Source of the DNA: a virus
Length of the DNA stretch: 35,220 nt
Virus record (IMG/VR): IMGVR_UViG_3300045988_171378
Strand: one strand, 5' to 3'
Shown here piece by piece: positions 1 to 35,220 of the stretch; position 1 is the stretch's first letter; the number at the start of each line of letters is the position of its first letter. Under the pieces are notes generated by a model. The model saw only the letters and a program-made list of their open reading frames with translations, searched no databases and was not told where the DNA came from. The position numbers and the translations under genes were made by a program.

Positions 1-99
1 ACCTCGAGCAAATAGCCGCCGCTTTGGGCGTATCTTTCGAGGCGTATTTTGTCGCCACCGACGGTACAAAAATATAAGGTAACGCTATGCAAAAAAAAG
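1..99. repeat. Terminal direct repeat, identical to nt 35122-35220 (closed circular or terminally redundant genome; unique length 35121 bp)
   Basis: Both ends read acctcgagcaaatagccgcc...aacgctatgcaaaaaaaag, 99/99 identical. Genes run seamlessly across the junction. Confidence 0.97.
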
Positions 100-440
100 A
101 GTGTAAATTTTCTAAAGACGAATTACATCAACTTTATATTGAGGAGAATAGAACTTTAAGGGAAATGTGTCCTATCCTCGGTATAAAATCAACTATTACT
201 GCAAGTAAAATTTTGCAATCCTATGGCATATCAACAAATCACAATGAGCGCATTGCCAATAAAACTAAGCAAAATATGTCTGATGATGATTTCAAAAATT
301 ATATAACTGATTTATATATCAACAGTGAATTATCGTTAAACGAAATAGGTAGAAGGTTAAATGTATGCGCTAAAGCTTTAAGAAATATTTTAAGCGATAT
401 AATATTCCTTTACGAGAAACAGCCTTTGCTAAATCCATAG
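87..440 (+). CDS. N-terminal DNA-binding part of an HNH homing endonuclease (two HTH-like repeats), cut off from the catalytic part by a 1-nt frameshift
   Basis: RBS taaggt lies upstream of the ATG. Internal repeat: LYIEENRTLREMCPILGIKSTITASKILQSYGIST vs LYINSELSLNEIGRRLNVCAKALRNIL. The second repeat continues (KRYNIPL) only in the reading frame of ORF 485..877. Confidence 0.6.
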   Translation: MQKKECKFSKDELHQLYIEENRTLREMCPILGIKSTITASKILQSYGISTNHNERIANKTKQNMSDDDFKNYITDLYINSELSLNEIGRRLNVCAKALRNILSDIIFLYEKQPLLNP

Positions 441-484
441 CTACACAAAAGGAACGTCACCCACGATGGCAGGGCGGTAAGCAT

Positions 485-877
485 GTGTGTAATAATGGCT
501 ACATAGAAGTTTATTGCCCAGAACACCCAAGAGCCAAATCAAGGAAATATGTTTACGAACATATTTTAGTTATGGAAAAACATATCGGACGATATTTATT
601 GCCTAATGAAATCGTCCACCATAAAAATGAAATTAAAACTGATAATCGCATAGAAAATTTGCAACTCATGACAAATAATGAACATGCGGCTTTACATGAT
701 ACAATACGAGAAAAAAAACATATAAATGTTTTAAATGGGGCATGGAGTAAAAAATATGAATGTTGCATTAACTGTGGTTCAACTACAGTTAAACATAAAG
801 GCAATGGCTTATGTGTTAACTGCTACGCTACAATGTTGCGCCACAAAAAGGAGGTGATGCCCTATGTCGAACATTAG
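485..877 (+). CDS. HNH endonuclease catalytic domain with C-terminal Cys4 zinc ribbon
   Basis: GYIEVYCPEHPRA...YVYEHILVMEKHIGRYLLPNEIVHHKNEIKTDNRIENLQLMTNNEHAALH is a His-Asn-His signature; CINCG...CVNC follows. The frame is open back to nt 374 and there encodes KRYNIPLRETAFAKSIATQKERHPRWQGGKH. The listed start is GTG. Confidence 0.85.
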   Translation: MCNNGYIEVYCPEHPRAKSRKYVYEHILVMEKHIGRYLLPNEIVHHKNEIKTDNRIENLQLMTNNEHAALHDTIREKKHINVLNGAWSKKYECCINCGSTTVKHKGNGLCVNCYATMLRHKKEVMPYVEH

Positions 878-888
878 AGCCGCACTCT

Positions 889-2304
889 ATGTTCGCGTTT
901 AACGCAAGCACGATGGAACAAGCGACCGACGGATATTCCATAGGCGAGCAAAAGGATAAATTACTGCACTACGCAAGTGCGCAAGGGTATGCTGTCGTCG
1001 ATACGTATTCCGACGAGGGCTTTTCCGGCAAAGATTTATTACGCCCGAATATGGAGCGAATGCTGAACGATATTCAGCACGGCAAGATAAATACCGTGCT
1101 GGTATATAAGCTTGACCGTCTTTCACGCCATGTCAAGGACGTATTAGAACTTGTCGAAACCTTTGATAAATGTAACGTAACTCTTTATTCGCTTTCGGAA
1201 AACTTCGATCTAGCCTCTCCTTTCGGCCGCGCGGCATTAAAAATGATGGCTACTTTTGCCGAACTTGAGCGCGAAACTATTGTAGAGCGCATGGAAATGG
1301 GCAAAATCGCAAGGGCCAAAGACGGCAAATATACATGTCCCGGAACGCGCTGCCCTTTCGGATACCGGCACGATAAGAAAAACGACCGTCTCCTCATTGA
1401 GGAATCCGAAGCCGAGATTATACGCAAGATATTCGATTTATACGTTAATCACGGATATACCTTCAGAAAGCTATACGATTATTGCCGCGAAGCCTATCCG
1501 GACGTTAAATATTTCAACAATCAAATGTGCTGCAAGCCTATAATCGAAAGGCCGCTGTACGCCGGCTATTTCCGTTACCGCGGCGGAGAACTTACAAAAG
1601 GGACTAATTTCGAAGCGATTATTTCTTACGAGCTTTTTCTCCAGGCGCAGGCGCAAGTTGACAGAAACCGTACTAAACGGCTTTCGGACAGCTCGCCCTA
1701 TTTGTTAACCGGACTTCTGATTTGCGGAAGGTGCGGAAACCGATACGTCGGCAAAATGTATGAGCGTTACACTAAAAAGCCGGACGGTACGCACACCAAG
1801 CATTACCGTTACCGGGATTACGGTTGCGCGGCCAGACTTAAGCGCGATAAAAATTATCACCCGGCAAAATGCGACAATGATATTTACCGCGCCGAGGAGC
1901 TGGAAAAAATCGTCGAGGATTACGTACTCAATCTGAATATTGACGATTACAACAAAGCCGACTTCTCCCCCGGCCTCATAGATAAAATGATGAGCGAAAT
2001 AGGCGCGATAAAACGCTCGCAAAGCAAACTGCTTGACCTGTATCTTTCCGGCGATATTGATAAGGATACTTTTCTTATAAGAAAAATCGAATACGATTCT
2101 AAAATTGCGGAGCTGCAAAATCTGATAGAAAAAGAAACTGAATCCGTACAGTCCGCGCCGACTAACGCTGAAGCGATTAAAAAGTCTATTGCAGAATACA
2201 GTATGCTCAACCGGCGACAAAAGCGCACGTTGCTAGAATATCTTATCAAAAATATCATAGTTGACGGCAGCAGAATCACAGTAAATTTACGGCTCAAAAA
2301 ATAA
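889..2304 (+). CDS. int: Large serine recombinase (phage integrase), 5' end disrupted
   Basis: Resolvase-type catalytic domain STMEQATDGYSIGEQ...VLVYKLDRLSRH...AELERETIVERM. This is followed by a recombinase domain, a Cys-rich zinc ribbon (CGRCGNRY...C...C) and a coiled coil. The canonical start MSNIRAALYVRV (ATG 864, RBS aaggaggtg) is in another frame and ends at TAA 900. Seven nt (900-906) separate YVRV from STMEQ. Confidence 0.85.
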   Translation: MFAFNASTMEQATDGYSIGEQKDKLLHYASAQGYAVVDTYSDEGFSGKDLLRPNMERMLNDIQHGKINTVLVYKLDRLSRHVKDVLELVETFDKCNVTLYSLSENFDLASPFGRAALKMMATFAELERETIVERMEMGKIARAKDGKYTCPGTRCPFGYRHDKKNDRLLIEESEAEIIRKIFDLYVNHGYTFRKLYDYCREAYPDVKYFNNQMCCKPIIERPLYAGYFRYRGGELTKGTNFEAIISYELFLQAQAQVDRNRTKRLSDSSPYLLTGLLICGRCGNRYVGKMYERYTKKPDGTHTKHYRYRDYGCAARLKRDKNYHPAKCDNDIYRAEELEKIVEDYVLNLNIDDYNKADFSPGLIDKMMSEIGAIKRSQSKLLDLYLSGDIDKDTFLIRKIEYDSKIAELQNLIEKETESVQSAPTNAEAIKKSIAEYSMLNRRQKRTLLEYLIKNIIVDGSRITVNLRLKK

Positions 2305-2352: not shown

Positions 2353-2470
2353 CTTGACAAATATATTTAACGGCTCTAAAATAGAGGTGAAGCTCAGAAA
2401 AATTGAATAGTCCATTGGCGCAATAATGAAGTAACGCTATAAATATTAACTTCAATAGGGCGATAAAATA

Positions 2471-28326: not shown

Positions 28327-28494
28327 TTATGCAACCCTCGGATTATCTCCGCACAACTTTTCATCCGTCGTATCCAAATAATTTTCTACAATGTCTAACA
28401 ACTTTTCGCCGGTTTCATAAGGCATTTCCTGCAATAACGCCGCGATAAAATAATATAAAAACTCCGTGTTATTTTCAGCTTTTTCTTTAAGCAT
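28327..28494 (-). CDS. Small protein, FLYYFIAALL family, copy A (55 aa, below the track cutoff)
   Basis: Hand translation gives MLKEKAENNTEFLYYFIAALLQEMPYETGEKLLDIVENYLDTTDEKLCGDNPRVA. It is paralogous to 34265..34483 and 33867..33974. Confidence 0.5.
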   Translation of the reverse strand: MLKEKAENNTEFLYYFIAALLQEMPYETGEKLLDIVENYLDTTDEKLCGDNPRVA

Positions 28495-28603
28495 TTGCCT
28501 GTCCCTCCTCGTTTAATAAACTTTGCACTTTCCCTACAAGCGGTTTAATTTTATCTTCTCCGATTATGTCGTACAACATTATCAACAGCAAATATAAATC
28601 CAT
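28487..28603 (-). CDS. Small hydrophobic-start peptide (38 aa)
   Basis: MDLYLLLIMLYDIIGEDKIKPLVGKVQSLLNEEGQANA. RBS ggag. 8-nt overlap with the next ORF. Confidence 0.35.
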   Translation of the reverse strand: MDLYLLLIMLYDIIGEDKIKPLVGKVQSLLNEEGQANA

Positions 28604-28624
28604 TTTTTAAATACTCCAATTTAT

Positions 28625-28653
28625 TTGACTTTTTTAACTGCCTGCCGTATAAT
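28625..28653 (+). promoter_or_regulatory. Consensus promoter of structured RNA A
   Basis: TTGACT (28625-28630), 17-nt spacer, TATAAT (28648-28653). Confidence 0.7.
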
Positions 28654-28659
28654 TAGAGG

Positions 28660-28737
28660 GTCGAGGGGCTTAGGCAGGTTGTTTGCCCCTCGTACCTTTT
28701 CGCCGTCCTTCCATACTACCGTTGGGCGGCTTTTTTA
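28660..28737 (+). ncRNA. Structured RNA, copy A (two hairpins, the second a terminator)
   Basis: Hairpin 1: CGAGGGGC (28662-28669) / GCCCCTCG (28685-28692) with a 15-nt loop. Hairpin 2: GCCGTCC (28702-28708) / GGGCGGC (28724-28730) followed by TTTTTT. Conserved with covariation in two further copies. Confidence 0.55.
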
Positions 28738-30924: not shown

Positions 30925-30942
30925 ATCTTTTTCTCCTTTTTT

Positions 30943-30978
30943 GTTTAAGAATTTTACAAAATAACTAGGCTCTTAAAC
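30943..30978 (-). repeat. Solitary CRISPR-like repeat unit (36 nt)
   Basis: The minus strand reads GTTTAAGAGCCTAGTTATTTTGTAAAATTCTTAAAC. It overlaps the stop codon of 30973..31155. Confidence 0.6.
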
Positions 30979-31155
30979 TTTTATACGGTATCCCATATAC
31001 ATATTGCTGTTTTCTTCTACCGCCTCTTCGCTTTCCTCTTCCTCGTCCATATATTCCACTTCCACTCCGAGCTTGTCCAATGCCGCGCATAATTCCGCTG
31101 CCGCGTCGAAATCCTTTACCTTTATTCTTTGTGTTTCCAATACTACCTCGTACAT
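30973..31155 (-). CDS. Small highly acidic protein (60 aa)
   Basis: EYMDEEEESEEAVEE. RBS gaaggag. Confidence 0.5.
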   Translation of the reverse strand: MYEVVLETQRIKVKDFDAAAELCAALDKLGVEVEYMDEEEESEEAVEENSNMYMGYRIKV

Positions 31156-31215: not shown

Positions 31216-32001
31216 TTAAACCTTGCCAAAATGAATTTTAATCAGTTCTATAAAGGCCTTATACTCTTTTCCGTAGATATTATCACCATGCGTTTCTTCA
31301 ACCTTTCGTTCAAACTCATTAAGCATGCCGCAAAAACACCCGCATACTATTTTTACTCCCCCATCTTTTTCAATAAATGCTGTTGTAGTATCAAGCCTTA
31401 AGCCGATTTTAGAGCACCATATAATATCTGCGTCACCGGATACACTCGCGTTGCCGTATACCCTCGCGTTGCCGGATACACTCGCGTCACCGCATACCCT
31501 CGCGTTGCCGTATACCCTCGCGTCACCGCATACACTCGCGTTGCCGGATATCCACGCGGCACCGGATATCCACGCGTCACAGCATACCCTCGCGTCACCG
31601 GATACACTCGCGTTGCCGGATACCCTCGCGTTGCCGTATACACTCGCGTTGCCGGATATCCACGCGTCACCGTATACCCTCGCGTTGCCGTATACACTCG
31701 CGTTGCCGTATACACTCGCGTTGCCGGATACACTCGCGTCACCGGATACACTCGCGTCACCGTATACCCTCGCGTTGCCGTATACACTCGCGTCACCGCA
31801 TACCCTCGCGTCACCGGATACACTCGCGTTGCCGGATATCCACGCGGCACCGGATTGACTTAAATTTTCCCCTTTTTCGACGTACCCGCCTAAGTCGCCT
31901 TTCTTGATTCCTAATGCTTTTATTGCCCTTACTGCTCGTATACGATAAAGCGTCACACCTGACTGTTCTATCGTAATATCTGTTAATTCATATTTCTTCA
32001 C
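31216..32001 (-). CDS. YdcK-like hexapeptide-repeat (beta-helix) protein
   Basis: The N-terminus YELTDITIEQSGVTLYRIRAVRAIKALGIKKGDLGGYVEKGENLSQSGAAWISGNA parallels E. coli YdcK. It is followed by 24 consecutive hexads G(N/D)A(S/R/W)(V/I)(S/Y/C). GTG start. Confidence 0.6.
   Translation of the reverse strand: MKKYELTDITIEQSGVTLYRIRAVRAIKALGIKKGDLGGYVEKGENLSQSGAAWISGNASVSGDARVCGDASVYGNARVYGDASVSGDASVSGNASVYGNASVYGNARVYGDAWISGNASVYGNARVSGNASVSGDARVCCDAWISGAAWISGNASVCGDARVYGNARVCGDASVSGNARVYGNASVSGDADIIWCSKIGLRLDTTTAFIEKDGGVKIVCGCFCGMLNEFERKVEETHGDNIYGKEYKAFIELIKIHFGKV
31420..31851. repeat. 24 tandem 18-nt units (coding hexapeptide repeats)
   Basis: Units such as gcgttgccgtataccctc and gcgtcaccggatacactc repeat head to tail. 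This keeps all frames on both strands open. Confidence 0.9.
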
Positions 32002-32406: not shown

Positions 32407-32416
32407 TCTCCTTTTT

Positions 32417-32452
32417 ATATAAGAGTTTTACAAAATAACAAGGCTCTAAAAC
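32417..32452 (-). repeat. Solitary CRISPR-like repeat unit (36 nt, degenerate 3' end)
   Basis: The minus strand reads GTTTTAGAGCCTTGTTATTTTGTAAAACTCTTATAT. It overlaps the stop codon of 32446..32706. Confidence 0.6.
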
Positions 32453-32706
32453 TTTATAAGCTCTCTATCGATTTTTTCACGCTGCTCCAAAAGCTCGCGG
32501 CGGCGCTCTTCTATGCGCTCGAAACGCTTGACGGCGCGCTCTTTAGCTCTATAAGCAGGATCCACTTTACGCGCATAATCGTCGCATAATTCCTTGTTCT
32601 TTTCGTATGTAAAAACCTGCGGCTCTTTCATCCAATCCTCGCCTTTAAAGATTGTCCCGTCCGCCGTTACCATAGTGACTTCAAAATTATGCGGTTTATA
32701 TACCAT
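32446..32706 (-). CDS. Hypothetical protein (86 aa)
   Basis: RBS agaggtg. C-terminal charged helix. Confidence 0.55.
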   Translation of the reverse strand: MVYKPHNFEVTMVTADGTIFKGEDWMKEPQVFTYEKNKELCDDYARKVDPAYRAKERAVKRFERIEERRRELLEQREKIDRELIKF

Positions 32707-32749: not shown

Positions 32750-32769
32750 CTGTCACCGCTTTCGTACAT
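32750..32769. repeat. Left arm of the 20-bp perfect inverted repeat bracketing the mini-array (partner 32871-32890)
   Basis: ctgtcaccgctttcgtacat is the exact reverse complement of atgtacgaaagcggtgacag. Confidence 0.95.
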
Positions 32770-32870
32770 GTTTGAGGTTTTACAAAATAACAAGGCTCTC
32801 AAACGATTTTGATTTCCATTTTAAATACCCTCTTGTTTAAGAGTTTTATAAAATAACTAGGCTCTCAAAC
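32770..32870 (-). CRISPR. CRISPR-like mini-array: 36-nt repeat, 30-nt spacer, 35-nt repeat (type II-like repeat; no cas genes)
   Basis: Minus-strand repeats are GTTTGAGAGCCTAGTTATTTTATAAAACTCTTAAAC (32870-32835) and GTTTGAGAGCCTTGTTATTTTGTAAAACCTCAAAC (32804-32770). The spacer is aagagggtatttaaaatggaaatcaaaatc (32834-32805). Confidence 0.5.
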
Positions 32871-32908
32871 ATGTACGAAAGCGGTGACAGACGATTTTGA
32901 TTTCTATT

Positions 32909-33156: not shown

Positions 33157-33246
33157 AACGGAGGGGCTTAGGCAGGTTGTTCGCCCCTCTTCCCTTATCG
33201 CCGTCCTACGCTTTTTGCATTTCCGTCGGACGGCTTTTCTTTTTTA
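33157..33246 (+). ncRNA. Structured RNA, copy B
   Basis: Hairpin 1: GAGGGGC (33161-33167) / GCCCCTC (33183-33189), with the same loop as copy A. Hairpin 2: GCCGTCC (33200-33206) / GGACGGC (33228-33234) followed by TTTTCTTTTTT. Confidence 0.55.
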
Positions 33247-33518: not shown

Positions 33519-33908
33519 ATGAAAACTTTGAAACCATTAAGAAAAGCACTGAAACAAACACAAACGGATATAGCTAAATATTTAGGTATTACTGTATCTG
33601 CTTACGGCAATTACGAATTAGGGCAACGCGAACCCGATATAGCCACACTCAACAAGCTTGCCGACTATTTCGACGTTTCCGTTGATTATCTATTAGGCAG
33701 GACTGAAATCCCCAATGCTTACGAAAATATTGTTAATACGCATATAAAAAATAAGTCTGCCGATTTTATTTCGACAGACTTACCCACTGCTATAGCTGAA
33801 AGAATGCGCTCTCATAATTTATCTTTAGAAAAATTTAAAAATTTAACTCCTCAGCAAACTGACGATTTACTTAATATTATCGAGATATTTCTCAATAATC
33901 TCAAGTAG
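33519..33908 (+). CDS. CI-like repressor (XRE HTH N-terminal domain plus C-terminal domain)
   Basis: LKQTQTDIAKYLGITVSAYGNYELGQREPDIATLNKLADYFDVSVDYLLGRTE. 129 aa. Divergent from the Cro-like operon. Confidence 0.8.
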   Translation: MKTLKPLRKALKQTQTDIAKYLGITVSAYGNYELGQREPDIATLNKLADYFDVSVDYLLGRTEIPNAYENIVNTHIKNKSADFISTDLPTAIAERMRSHNLSLEKFKNLTPQQTDDLLNIIEIFLNNLK

Positions 33909-33974
33909 CTTTTCTCCATCCTCGTACTCTAAGTCTTCCAACAATGCCGCAATAAAATAATAGAGAAAATCCAT
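33867..33974 (-). CDS. Small protein, FLYYFIAALL family, copy B (35 aa), antiparallel overlap with the CI-like gene 3' end
   Basis: Hand translation gives MDFLYYFIAALLEDLEYEDGEKLLEIIEKYLDNIK. RBS aaggagg lies 5 nt upstream. Confidence 0.4.
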   Translation of the reverse strand: MDFLYYFIAALLEDLEYEDGEKLLEIIEKYLDNIK

Positions 33975-34187
33975 TTTTCCTCCTTTTATACTTTATTCAC
34001 TTTAATAGCTATCGAGGTGTATTTACATTATACAATATATTTCGTCAAATTCCAACTGATAGAGTAAAATTTTTACATTTTTTTCTTGCAATTTTATCAA
34101 AAATTTTATATTGAATCAAAAATTGAATACTTTATACGATTTTTAAAAATTTATTAAATAACACTCTCTAAAAGAAGGTGATAATGT

Positions 34188-34264: not shown

Positions 34265-34483
34265 TCACACAGCAAAAGTATTTACTCGTAAAACTCTTTC
34301 ACTTTTAACCTCCGTAACGGGAGCCAAATAATTTTCTACAATGTCTAACAACTTTTCGCCTGCTTCGTAAGGCATTTCCTGCAATAACGCCGCGATAAAA
34401 TAATATAAAAACTCCGCGTTATTTTCTGTTTTCTCTAATACATGCGTCTCTTTTGCTTCCTCTGTGCGTATTCCTAAATCCAT
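34265..34483 (-). CDS. Small protein, FLYYFIAALL family, copy C (72 aa)
   Basis: NNAEFLYYFIAALLQEMPYEAGEKLLDIVENYL is nearly identical to copy A. The DNA at 34327-34430 is a close repeat of 28375-28478. Confidence 0.55.
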   Translation of the reverse strand: MDLGIRTEEAKETHVLEKTENNAEFLYYFIAALLQEMPYEAGEKLLDIVENYLAPVTEVKSERVLRVNTFAV

Positions 34484-34504
34484 TTTTTAAATCCTCCAAT
34501 TTAT

Positions 34505-34533
34505 TTGACTTTTTTACCTGCCTGTCGTATAAT
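34505..34533 (+). promoter_or_regulatory. Consensus promoter of structured RNA C
   Basis: TTGACT (34505-34510), 17-nt spacer, TATAAT (34528-34533). Confidence 0.7.
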
Positions 34534-34539
34534 CAGAGG

Positions 34540-34630
34540 GTGTCAGAGGGGCGGCAAGCGTTACCCCTCTGCCCTCTTGGCGCCGTTCGGTTTTGGTTTA
34601 GTGGACTTTCAACCGAGCGGCTTCCCTTTT
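34540..34630 (+). ncRNA. Structured RNA, copy C
   Basis: Hairpin 1: CAGAGGGG (34544-34551) / CCCCTCTG (34564-34571). Hairpin 2: GCCGTTCGG (34582-34590) / CCGAGCGGC (34613-34621), followed by TTCCCTTTT, a weaker U-run. Confidence 0.5.
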
Positions 34631-34985: not shown

Positions 34986-35198
34986 ATGAAATTTGCAAAT
35001 CGAATTAAGCACTTGCTTGTAGATTGCGGCAACATATCAGAGGCGGAACTTGCAAGGCGGTTGGGTGTAACACCGCAAACTCTCAACAAGAAAATGCACA
35101 CAGATAACTTTTCCACCGCCGACCTCGAGCAAATAGCCGCCGCTTTGGGCGTATCTTTCGAGGCGTATTTTGTCGCCACCGACGGTACAAAAATATAA
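34986..35198 (+). CDS. HTH DNA-binding protein, module C (70 aa)
   Basis: NISEAELARRLGVTPQTLNKKMHTDNFSTADLEQIAAALG. RBS gggaga. The 3' end lies in the terminal repeat (equivalent to nt 1-77). Confidence 0.75.
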   Translation: MKFANRIKHLLVDCGNISEAELARRLGVTPQTLNKKMHTDNFSTADLEQIAAALGVSFEAYFVATDGTKI

Positions 35199-35220
35199 GG
35201 TAACGCTATGCAAAAAAAAG
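35122..35220. repeat. Terminal direct repeat, identical to nt 1-99
   Basis: 99/99 identity with the start of the window. Confidence 0.97.

Follow-up and report, generated by a model that had tools for sequence, protein, structure and literature searches.

Whether a phage can still integrate when a stop codon closes its integrase gene in the middle of the catalytic motif, and how such a gene could be read, are the questions raised by a stretch of 35,220 nt from IMG/VR record IMGVR_UViG_3300045988_171378 (the window, i.e., the whole stretch of DNA that was analysed). In this window the integrase gene (int) opens with a mini open reading frame (mini-ORF) of 12 codons, MSNIRAALYVRV, which ends at a TAA, and the body of the enzyme follows in the +1 frame from its serine nucleophile onwards, on the other side of the seven nucleotides TAACGCA. 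Junctions were compared in about 60 loci. In light of this comparison the gap is virtually certain to be real and heritable, and its carriers quite probably still make an active integrase; as to the decoding step, which we infer entirely from sequence, we lean towards a programmed translational bypass of 6-7 nt (a hop) that would restore the canonical protein.

The window represents a complete circular genome (~35.1 kb), that of a temperate phage with human-gut Christensenellales as host. The same 99 nt stand at both ends (1-99 and 35122-35220) and thus close a circle of ~35,121 bp in the attP configuration; several contigs of ~35.2-35.4 kb begin at different points of the same circle, and the source names of matching contigs are human-gut Christensenellales metagenome-assembled genomes (MAGs) and Caudoviricetes. 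No close relatives were found among GenBank phages, where only a weak match to a Staphylococcus phage HNH gene was returned; IMG/VR yielded one interrupted contig only, and none of the GTDB representatives contained the 26-mer.

The break in the integrase gene and its distribution

Re-reading of the sequence reproduced all the coordinates given in the preliminary description for the mini-ORF, its ribosome-binding site, the stop at 900 and the body from 907 in the +1 frame (Table 1), and bore out the exact position of the break, with the conserved Arg-Val on one side and the nucleophilic Ser on the other. The frame of the body, open from 820, has ATG889 as its earliest start and gives 471 aa from there; the resulting MFAFNAST product had been noted to lack the motif Arg, which is correct, and the motif Tyr is absent from it too. 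No contiguous Y-x-R-x-S-T-x-x-Q motif is found in one frame of the window DNA, as Y-V-R-V and S-T-M-E-Q lie in different frames, split by TAA and 4 nt, and would be joined only in the bypass product proposed below. The stretch 895-905 is palindromic, hence five of the inserted bases (AACGC, 901-905) repeat, in inverted form, the GCGTT before them.

Table 1. Position of the features of the int region in the window.
Feature	Position	Strand	Remarks
HNH homing-endonuclease gene (pseudogene in the window)	87..877	+	Pfam HNH_3; PHROG HNH endonuclease families; tail overlaps the start of int
Shine-Dalgarno (SD) sequence AAGGAGGTG	848..856	+	7 nt 5' of ATG864; left part of the conserved patch GGAGGTGATGCCYT-ATG
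Mini-ORF, 12 codons, MSNIRAALYVRV	864..899	+	corresponds to integrase residues 1-12, including Tyr9 and Arg11 of the catalytic motif
Body-frame ATG (MFAFNAST...)	889..891	+	start chosen by gene callers; absent from other allele types
Mini-palindrome GCGTT-T-AACGC, GCGTTTAACGC	895..905	+	direct reading of the sequence
Proposed take-off codon GTT	897..899	+	last mini-ORF codon, Val12
Coding gap TAACGCA, 7 nt	900..906	+	TAA stop (900-902), then CGCA; lies between GTT (897-899) and the Ser codon AGC (907-909)
Proposed landing triplet GCA	904..906	+	near-cognate for tRNA-Val, unmatched
Integrase body STMEQATDGY...	907..2304	+	from the Ser nucleophile codon AGC to TAA (2302-2304); Resolvase, Recombinase and Zn-ribbon domains
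attP	2419..2462	+	imperfect inverted arms 2419-2432 / 2449-2462, centred on T2440/A2441

Deletion of 900-906 in silico gives a protein of 477 aa that matches Pfam Resolvase PF00239 over the entire profile (1-145/145, E=1.2e-41), as well as Recombinase PF07508 and Zn_ribbon_recom PF13408. Its PDB matches are the TP901-1 and A118 integrases (3BVP, 4KIS), and the repaired junction aligns gaplessly with the catalytic domain of the former (PDB 3BVP). Judged by its domains and by the adjacent attP, the integrase is a large serine recombinase of the TP901-1/A118 kind. It shares with these enzymes the domain architecture and, once the gap is removed, the N-terminal catalytic motif, together with an attP next to int that has inverted arms around a central dinucleotide, while the genes of the known members are uninterrupted.

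The possibility of an assembly error, raised in the preliminary description, is refuted by the number of independent assemblies with the break, as considerably more than 100 index blocks, which derive from a wide range of samples and assemblers, contain the interrupted gene. The identical 471-aa product with the ATG889 start occurs in 59 index blocks of the public collection, whose contigs again come from numerous samples and assemblers, and the products of sister alleles in 63 (P0122, types B and C; Table 2) and 71 blocks (P0138, type D), the latter being carried by 52 contigs vs. 70 for its intact counterpart in the cluster listing. Overall, the intact alleles sampled do not outnumber the interrupted ones. 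Alignment with the int genes of relatives returned the same 7 nt in type-A relatives and comparable gaps in the sister alleles; every type-A locus fetched has the same junction, and the IMG/VR contig L001 has the identical 7 nt, yet differs from the window by 18 substitutions over 3.4 kb.

It is hardly credible, moreover, that the break is a sequencing artefact or that DNA phase variation removes the 7 nt in a subpopulation. Minority DNA variants would be beyond the reach of consensus assemblies, and the type B insert is flanked by 3-nt direct repeats (GTC...GTC) on which such variation could be thought to depend; nonetheless, besides the number and variety of the assemblies, none of the ~45 interrupted loci ever showed an allele-specific patch minus its insert, the intact alleles carry different patches and are not revertants, and type A has no flanking repeats able to mediate precise excision.

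The interrupted alleles are of six types across four integrase lineages, whose bodies are down to 67% identical, and all have a common layout: an SD sequence, a 12-codon mini-ORF ending in Y-x-R-V, the stop codon UAA directly 3' of the Val codon, 3-4 nt, and the Ser-Thr codons. The segment from SD to start, GGAGGTGATGCCYT-ATG, is kept in all six, and the consensus of their mini-ORFs is M-(S/K)-(N/S)-I-R-A-A-(L/I)-Y-(V/T)-R-V. Uninterrupted alleles (P0001, P0130, P0133) read TAC GTC AGA GTY AGC at the same place. A further candidate, P0054 ('MSTLEQ...'), was rejected as an interrupted allele, the gene being intact with a miscalled start. The layout persists where the upstream HNH gene and the integrase body have diverged to ~70% identity in DNA and 67% in protein. 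From the alignments, the gap is old and widespread, and conserved in position and layout. Gene callers label these integrases as truncated (471-, 463-, 417- or 416-aa products), so that surveys of phage lifestyle, and surveys of serine integrases for genome engineering, may wrongly discard functional enzymes.

Table 2. Junctions of the six interrupted allele types, and phages in which the same allele type was found both integrated (attR) and excised (attP).
Type	Junction	Insert	Loci	Integrated	Excised	Identity
A (window)	CGC GTT TAA CGCA AGC	7 nt	window, L001, L008-16, L021, L030-34	L013	L014; L015	100.000% over 11,604 nt; 7,101 nt
B	CGC GTC TAA GTC AGC	6 nt, in frame	L022-25, L027, L028	L024 (NCBI MAG)	L028	100.000% over 11,529 nt
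C	CGC GTC TAA CGCA AGC	7 nt	L026, L029			
D	CGC GTC TAA CGCC AGC	7 nt	L044, L058-63; body 67% identical to the window's	L058, L062, L044	L060	100.000% over 6,332 nt
E	CGT GTT TAA GTT TCA	6 nt, in frame	L051-54; third lineage	L053	L052	100.000% over 3,576 nt
F	CGC GTC TAA A GTT TCG	7 nt	L055-57; fourth lineage			

Integrated and excised phages with the same interrupted allele

The preliminary description had concluded that the integrase should be inactive or else need an unusual rescue. The first conclusion is contradicted by the window allele and its sisters, which occur in integrated and in excised phages that are 100% identical to each other, each identical pair coming from different samples (Table 2). 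Type A was itself seen as attR and as attP at 100% identity, and relatives with the same 7 nt thus appear to be still integrating. A rescue is indeed what the comparative evidence points to; ATG889, in contrast, is probably irrelevant as a rescue, being present in type A only.

Identity between attP and attR stops at ...GTAACGCTATA (window 2441), i.e., at the centre of the inverted repeat, 137 nt past the int stop, and the predicted attP has the arrangement typical for a serine integrase. Intact and interrupted alleles have the same crossover and the same host site, beside an NMT1/ABC-transporter operon. In the phages of types D and E (L058 6254-6332) the att crossover lies ~78 nt past the int stop and falls within the 5' end called for the host NMT1-like gene; the prophage seems to supply a replacement 5' end for this gene. 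A particular configuration was met in L013 (11554-11704), a 384-kb scaffold (ERZ28564476 scaffold_14) in which a contig ending 51 nt past the attP crossover is followed by an N run and by a contig starting with the attR junction. With an attP-type end thus joined to an attR-type contig, this sample seems to contain both the excised and the integrated form.

The two coding parts on either side of the gap are both preserved. All interrupted loci that cover the gene from end to end have a full-length body, the diverged bodies of the window and of type D are both open over 465 codons, and the ratio of nonsynonymous to synonymous differences per site (pN/pS) of the body is 0.03-0.23 between haplotypes. 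Across alleles the mini-ORF changes synonymously at codons 6, 7, 11 and 12 and nonsynonymously only at codons 2, 3, 8 and 10, with replacements confined to positions that also vary among intact integrases; its pS reaches ~0.45, Tyr9, Arg11 and Val12 are invariant, and the Arg is kept via a synonymous CGC to CGT change. Synonymous drift together with the invariance of these three residues shows that the 12 codons are constrained as part of a protein. Relaxed constraint, secondary disruption and loss of function, by which a pseudogene would be recognized, were not observed, sampling bias and patch recombination being caveats to this statement.

These caveats deserve consideration, since they are among the points that speak for a different explanation, in which the integrase would be dead in all interrupted alleles and the conserved patch around the start of int, with its gap, would spread selfishly by HNH-driven conversion or by hitch-hiking; the integrated and excised forms would then reflect history, helper integrases of related phages, or conversion of resident prophages. 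In formal terms the ORF is interrupted, and the patch clearly moves onto intact-type backbones by short-tract conversion. Three further circumstances weigh against an active enzyme. Most loci were retrieved by exact protein identity, which biases the sampling toward intact bodies. The pN/pS of the body is not a clean test of selection after the interruption, because the patch recombines onto different bodies, whose diversity may be older than the conversions. Finally, the body of haplotype 9 is nearly identical to that of the intact P0001, and the low body pN/pS may therefore predate the transfer of the patch.

A dead integrase is nonetheless unlikely. Four allele types are 100% identical in attR and attP form over 3.6-11.6 kb, and a dead enzyme cannot easily yield both. 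The layout is kept across bodies that are only 67% identical and that are both intact over 465 codons, the catalytic residues of the mini-ORF are conserved through synonymous change, and the interrupted alleles equal or exceed in frequency the intact ones sampled. Loci found by DNA search or tblastn (L001, L021, L044), moreover, have no int deletion or secondary disruption, and no second recombinase was found by Pfam search of the window proteins or among the Pfam annotations of neighbouring genes in relatives.

Decoding of the gap

If the integrase is active, the ribosome has to pass from the mini-ORF to the body. According to the hop that we propose, ribosomes would start at ATG864, translate 12 codons and stall while peptidyl-tRNA-Val is paired with GUU and the A site is occupied by UAA; some of them would fail to terminate, the peptidyl-tRNA would release the mRNA, the mRNA would slip by 7 nt, and decoding would resume at AGC907. 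The product would be the canonical integrase, MSNIRAALYVRV-STMEQ..., with VSTMEQATDGYSIGEQK as the peptide across the hop junction. We favour this decoding since a single mechanism, in which take-off from Val is followed by resumption at the Ser codon, would restore the canonical Y-x-R-V-S-T for each of the six alleles. In types B, E and F a Val codon stands right before the Ser codon (GUC-UAA-GUC, GUU-UAA-GUU and GUC-UAA-A-GUU, respectively), the layout of a "stop-hop", with a landing codon that matches the take-off codon (GUC/GUC in B, GUU/GUU in E, GUC/GUU in F); in type F the frame changes, yet the Val codon is kept just before Ser in the new frame. The two codons are unmatched in types A (GUU vs. 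GCA), C and D. The triplet before Ser is always G(U/C)N in the six types, and a single transition would turn type D (UAA C GCC) into the perfectly matched UAA C GUC.

A number of points weigh against the hop. The window allele, like those of types C and D, is without a cognate landing codon, GCA and GCC matching the tRNA-Val anticodon at 2/3 positions at best. No known stimulator of the kind acting in T4 gene 60 was evident, no SD-like element was found near the gap, and the nascent chain has only 12 residues. UAA is normally an efficient stop, and synthetic stop-hops operate at a level of ~1%, so the yield may be low. Local RNA folds are no better than those of shuffled sequences (z -0.0 to -1.1): a GCGU/ACGC stem of 4 bp with a 3-nt loop, spanning part of the take-off codon and the stop, is present in the minimum free energy fold of types A and C, and type F has an 8-bp stem with a UUCG loop, both within the range of the shuffles, while no such stem occurs in B or E; a conserved RNA structure was therefore rejected as a stimulator. 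The alleles also share a homologous patch, so that part of the conservation reflects common descent, and every allele would give a consistent two-residue insertion (RV-x-V/A-ST) if it were decoded by readthrough or +1 frameshifting.

This last alternative keeps the gene functional by way of a +1 frameshift at GUU_UAA_C (types A, C, D and F) or of stop readthrough (types B and E), and its product would have two extra residues between Arg-Val and Ser, RV-NA-ST in the window, where VNASTMEQATDGYSIGEQK would be the +1 peptide. The integrated and excised phages fit it as well as they fit hopping; the insertion would be of similar character in all six alleles (N, K or a readthrough residue, then A or V), and the A-vs-C difference at the seventh base of the gap (types A/C vs. 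D) is synonymous (Ala) in the +1 frame. A sense codon followed by a stop and a C, such as GUU UAA C in the window, is also a 'shifty stop', a known +1 context: in prfB (RF2) programmed +1 frameshifting takes place at CUU UGA C. There, however, it relies on an essential SD-like stimulator 3 nt upstream and on good re-pairing in the +1 frame. Neither is found here, as no upstream SD-like stimulator is present and re-pairing in the P site would be poor (GUU to UUU, 2/3 positions; GUC to UCU, 1/3), and frameshifting would add two residues to the active site. A two-residue insertion between the catalytic Arg and Ser was seen in none of ~185 inspected homologues, nor in TP901-1 Int. Moreover, two different mechanisms would be needed for one conserved layout and, were the enzyme able to tolerate the insert as part of its protein sequence, at least some of the six alleles ought to have a sense codon where UAA stands. 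Frameshifting or readthrough thus appears rather improbable, if less so than a dead enzyme.

Much further removed is reinitiation after UAA, at ATG889 or at a downstream Met, which would produce an N-terminally altered integrase or a non-catalytic DNA-binding protein. ATG889 lies 11 nt 5' of the stop, in the body frame, and is the start used by gene callers, but it has no SD sequence and is found in type A only, and its MFAFNAST product is without the motif Tyr and Arg. In types C, D and F the body frame has no ATG, GTG or TTG 5' of the Ser codon, and the Met after Ser-Thr is missing from D and F as well; we consider reinitiation highly improbable. Two other routes were rejected. Reassignment of TAA is at odds with four of the six alleles, in which the two parts are out of frame, and with the TAA that ends the integrase gene itself; a phage-encoded suppressor or frameshift tRNA was dismissed since no tRNA gene is present in the window.

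The hop over a stop codon has counterparts in the laboratory. Synthetic stop-hops with matched codons are established in Escherichia coli (Weiss et al., 1987, as cited in PMC5009743). In these constructs matched codons flank the stop and 9 nt are decoded as one amino acid, which is exactly the arrangement of types B and E, with Val codons; they differ in being engineered and of low efficiency, and the window allele would need a +7 hop onto a near-cognate triplet. O'Connor and co-workers reportedly described, in 1989, tRNA-Val hopping over GUG UAA GUU. As to natural cases, a 2016 recoding review states that no in-frame stop-hop was known, and that shorter counterparts of gene 60 had long been expected (PMC5009743). 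The 'byp' elements of Magnusiomyces capitatus mitochondria, 27-55 nt long and present in many genes (Lang, 2014 and Nosek, 2015, as cited), are likewise short mobile inserts in coding sequences made harmless by bypassing, with landing codons sometimes matched at 2/3 positions; in contrast to the gap described here, they depend on mitochondrial translation with its peculiarities and on an A-site codon that is unused, and have no link with a homing endonuclease.

The HNH gene, the mobile patch and the rest of the genome

The preliminary description had remarked that the break lies at the kind of site that homing elements favour, a hint that fits the neighbourhood of int: an HNH gene lies directly upstream, and the patch with the gap behaves as a mobile cassette. 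Types A, D and E have the HNH gene immediately 5' of int. The window copy has lost one A in the run 383-385 and is thereby broken into 87-440 and 485-877; L008-L011 have the same split, which is absent from L001, L013 and L030, and the gene is intact at 263 aa in L001, L013, L030 and L044. In the P0001 lineage the HNH protein has 321 aa, with an extra N-terminal DNA-binding repeat, and the HNH alleles are mosaics of identical and ~70%-identical blocks. A strict linkage between the break and the HNH gene was rejected, as types B, C and F and locus L016 have no HNH gene.

Transfer of a cassette with co-conversion of its flanks is visible in the alignments. The patch is identical at 35/36 nt between integrase genes that are only 67% identical; types B and C consist of an intact-type backbone with a tract of 35-50 nt that is identical to the type D cassette and ends at the gap, and L016 has the same intact-type backbone with a type A patch. 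As read from these tracts, gene conversion over short tracts also transfers the patch and gap on their own. Within 20 nt of the site, all the HNH-linked alleles carry an indel (+7, +7, +6 or -3 nt), and the intact alleles without an HNH gene have none. The -3 belongs to P0001 (L002-L006), the only HNH-linked integrase without the gap, which has a 3-nt deletion 15 nt downstream of the gap position; deletion and accompanying substitutions fall at window ~922-927 (GAACAA---ATCGAC vs. GAACAAGCGACCGAC). This deletion may be an alternative, in-frame alteration of the same endonuclease target.

On this basis we propose that the gap and the ~55-nt patch upstream of it would be part of a mobile cassette tied to the adjacent HNH homing endonuclease. 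The insert would disrupt the target of the endonuclease in the most conserved part of the integrase gene and, with the target disrupted, carriers would be protected from cleavage, while the bypass would keep the integrase functional. This proposal follows the analogy with T4 mobA/gene 60; whether the gap is such an HNH-linked protective cassette, with the HNH enzyme cutting the uninterrupted site, we regard as evenly poised.

In T4, the gap of gene 60 blocks self-cleavage by MobA, and the bypass is often retained after the endonuclease has been lost (Huang, 1988; Bonocora, 2011; Manning and Atkins, bioRxiv 10.1101/2022.08.31.505936). The two systems have in common a non-coding insert in a highly conserved part of the gene for an essential enzyme, a stop codon directly after the take-off codon, an HNH-type homing endonuclease gene directly upstream, co-transfer of a diverged flanking patch, pseudogenisation or loss of the endonuclease with the gap retained, and alleles of a 'hit-and-run' kind. 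They differ in the length of the gap, 6-7 nt here vs. 50 nt, and in the gene, which is here the serine integrase of a temperate gut siphophage and there the topoisomerase of a T4-like myophage. Moreover, the endonuclease gene does not divide the integrase into two ORFs, and neither a long nascent-peptide signal nor an internal SD or a significant stem-loop was detected; the window allele has no matched landing codon, and in half of the alleles the landing codon is near-cognate. A similarity to the gene 60 cassette was not detected, though no direct comparison with gene 60 was run.

Natural programmed bypassing is known from very few systems, and no report linking serine integrases with bypassing, hopping or homing endonucleases was found in the incomplete library consulted. 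The interrupted integrases have about an even chance of being the first natural family of short 'stop-hops' (6-7 nt at UAA in the catalytic motif of a serine integrase) and, after T4 mobA/gene 60, the second independent case of a homing endonuclease with a protective bypassable gap. If so, they would provide a minimal bypass element active in gut Clostridia, whose natural alleles, with matched or near-cognate landing and 6 or 7 nt, already constitute a mutational series. The element is compact (~60 nt) and should be experimentally tractable, with six natural alleles that are abundant in human and other gut metagenomes and with attP x attB recombination as a clear functional read-out; the minimal requirements for take-off and landing, and the co-evolution of homing endonucleases with bypassable gaps, would become testable.

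Upstream of int these phages have a hotspot of accessory and defence cargo. In L016, L024-L029 and L035-L039 a HicA/HicB toxin-antitoxin pair lies directly upstream of int, replacing the HNH gene and its neighbours (a 70-aa helix-turn-helix gene and small ORFs), and other relatives have Abi_2, SIR2_2 or SocA_Panacea genes near int.

Repeats are found elsewhere in the window as well. In the early region of the phage, the ORF 31216-32001 (minus strand) contains, at 31358-31950, ~22 in-register copies of a repeat with an 18-nt period, and its product, a repeat protein, has Pfam hits to bactofilin and to the YdcK beta-solenoid repeat. The early region also has non-coding modules in duplicate, 113, 67 and 47 nt long and 91-94% identical, at 28374-28709 and 34324-34541 (also at 33161-33207 and 33881-33993); the 67-nt module contains a sigma-70-like promoter (TTGACT-17-TATAAT), and the modules look like repeated promoter or regulatory cassettes. 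Finally, four copies of a 44-nt element with the core TTTTACAAAATAAC-AGGCTCT-AAAC are located at 30938-30981, 32412-32455, 32764-32807 and 32830-32873, and may be operator or terminator-like repeats.

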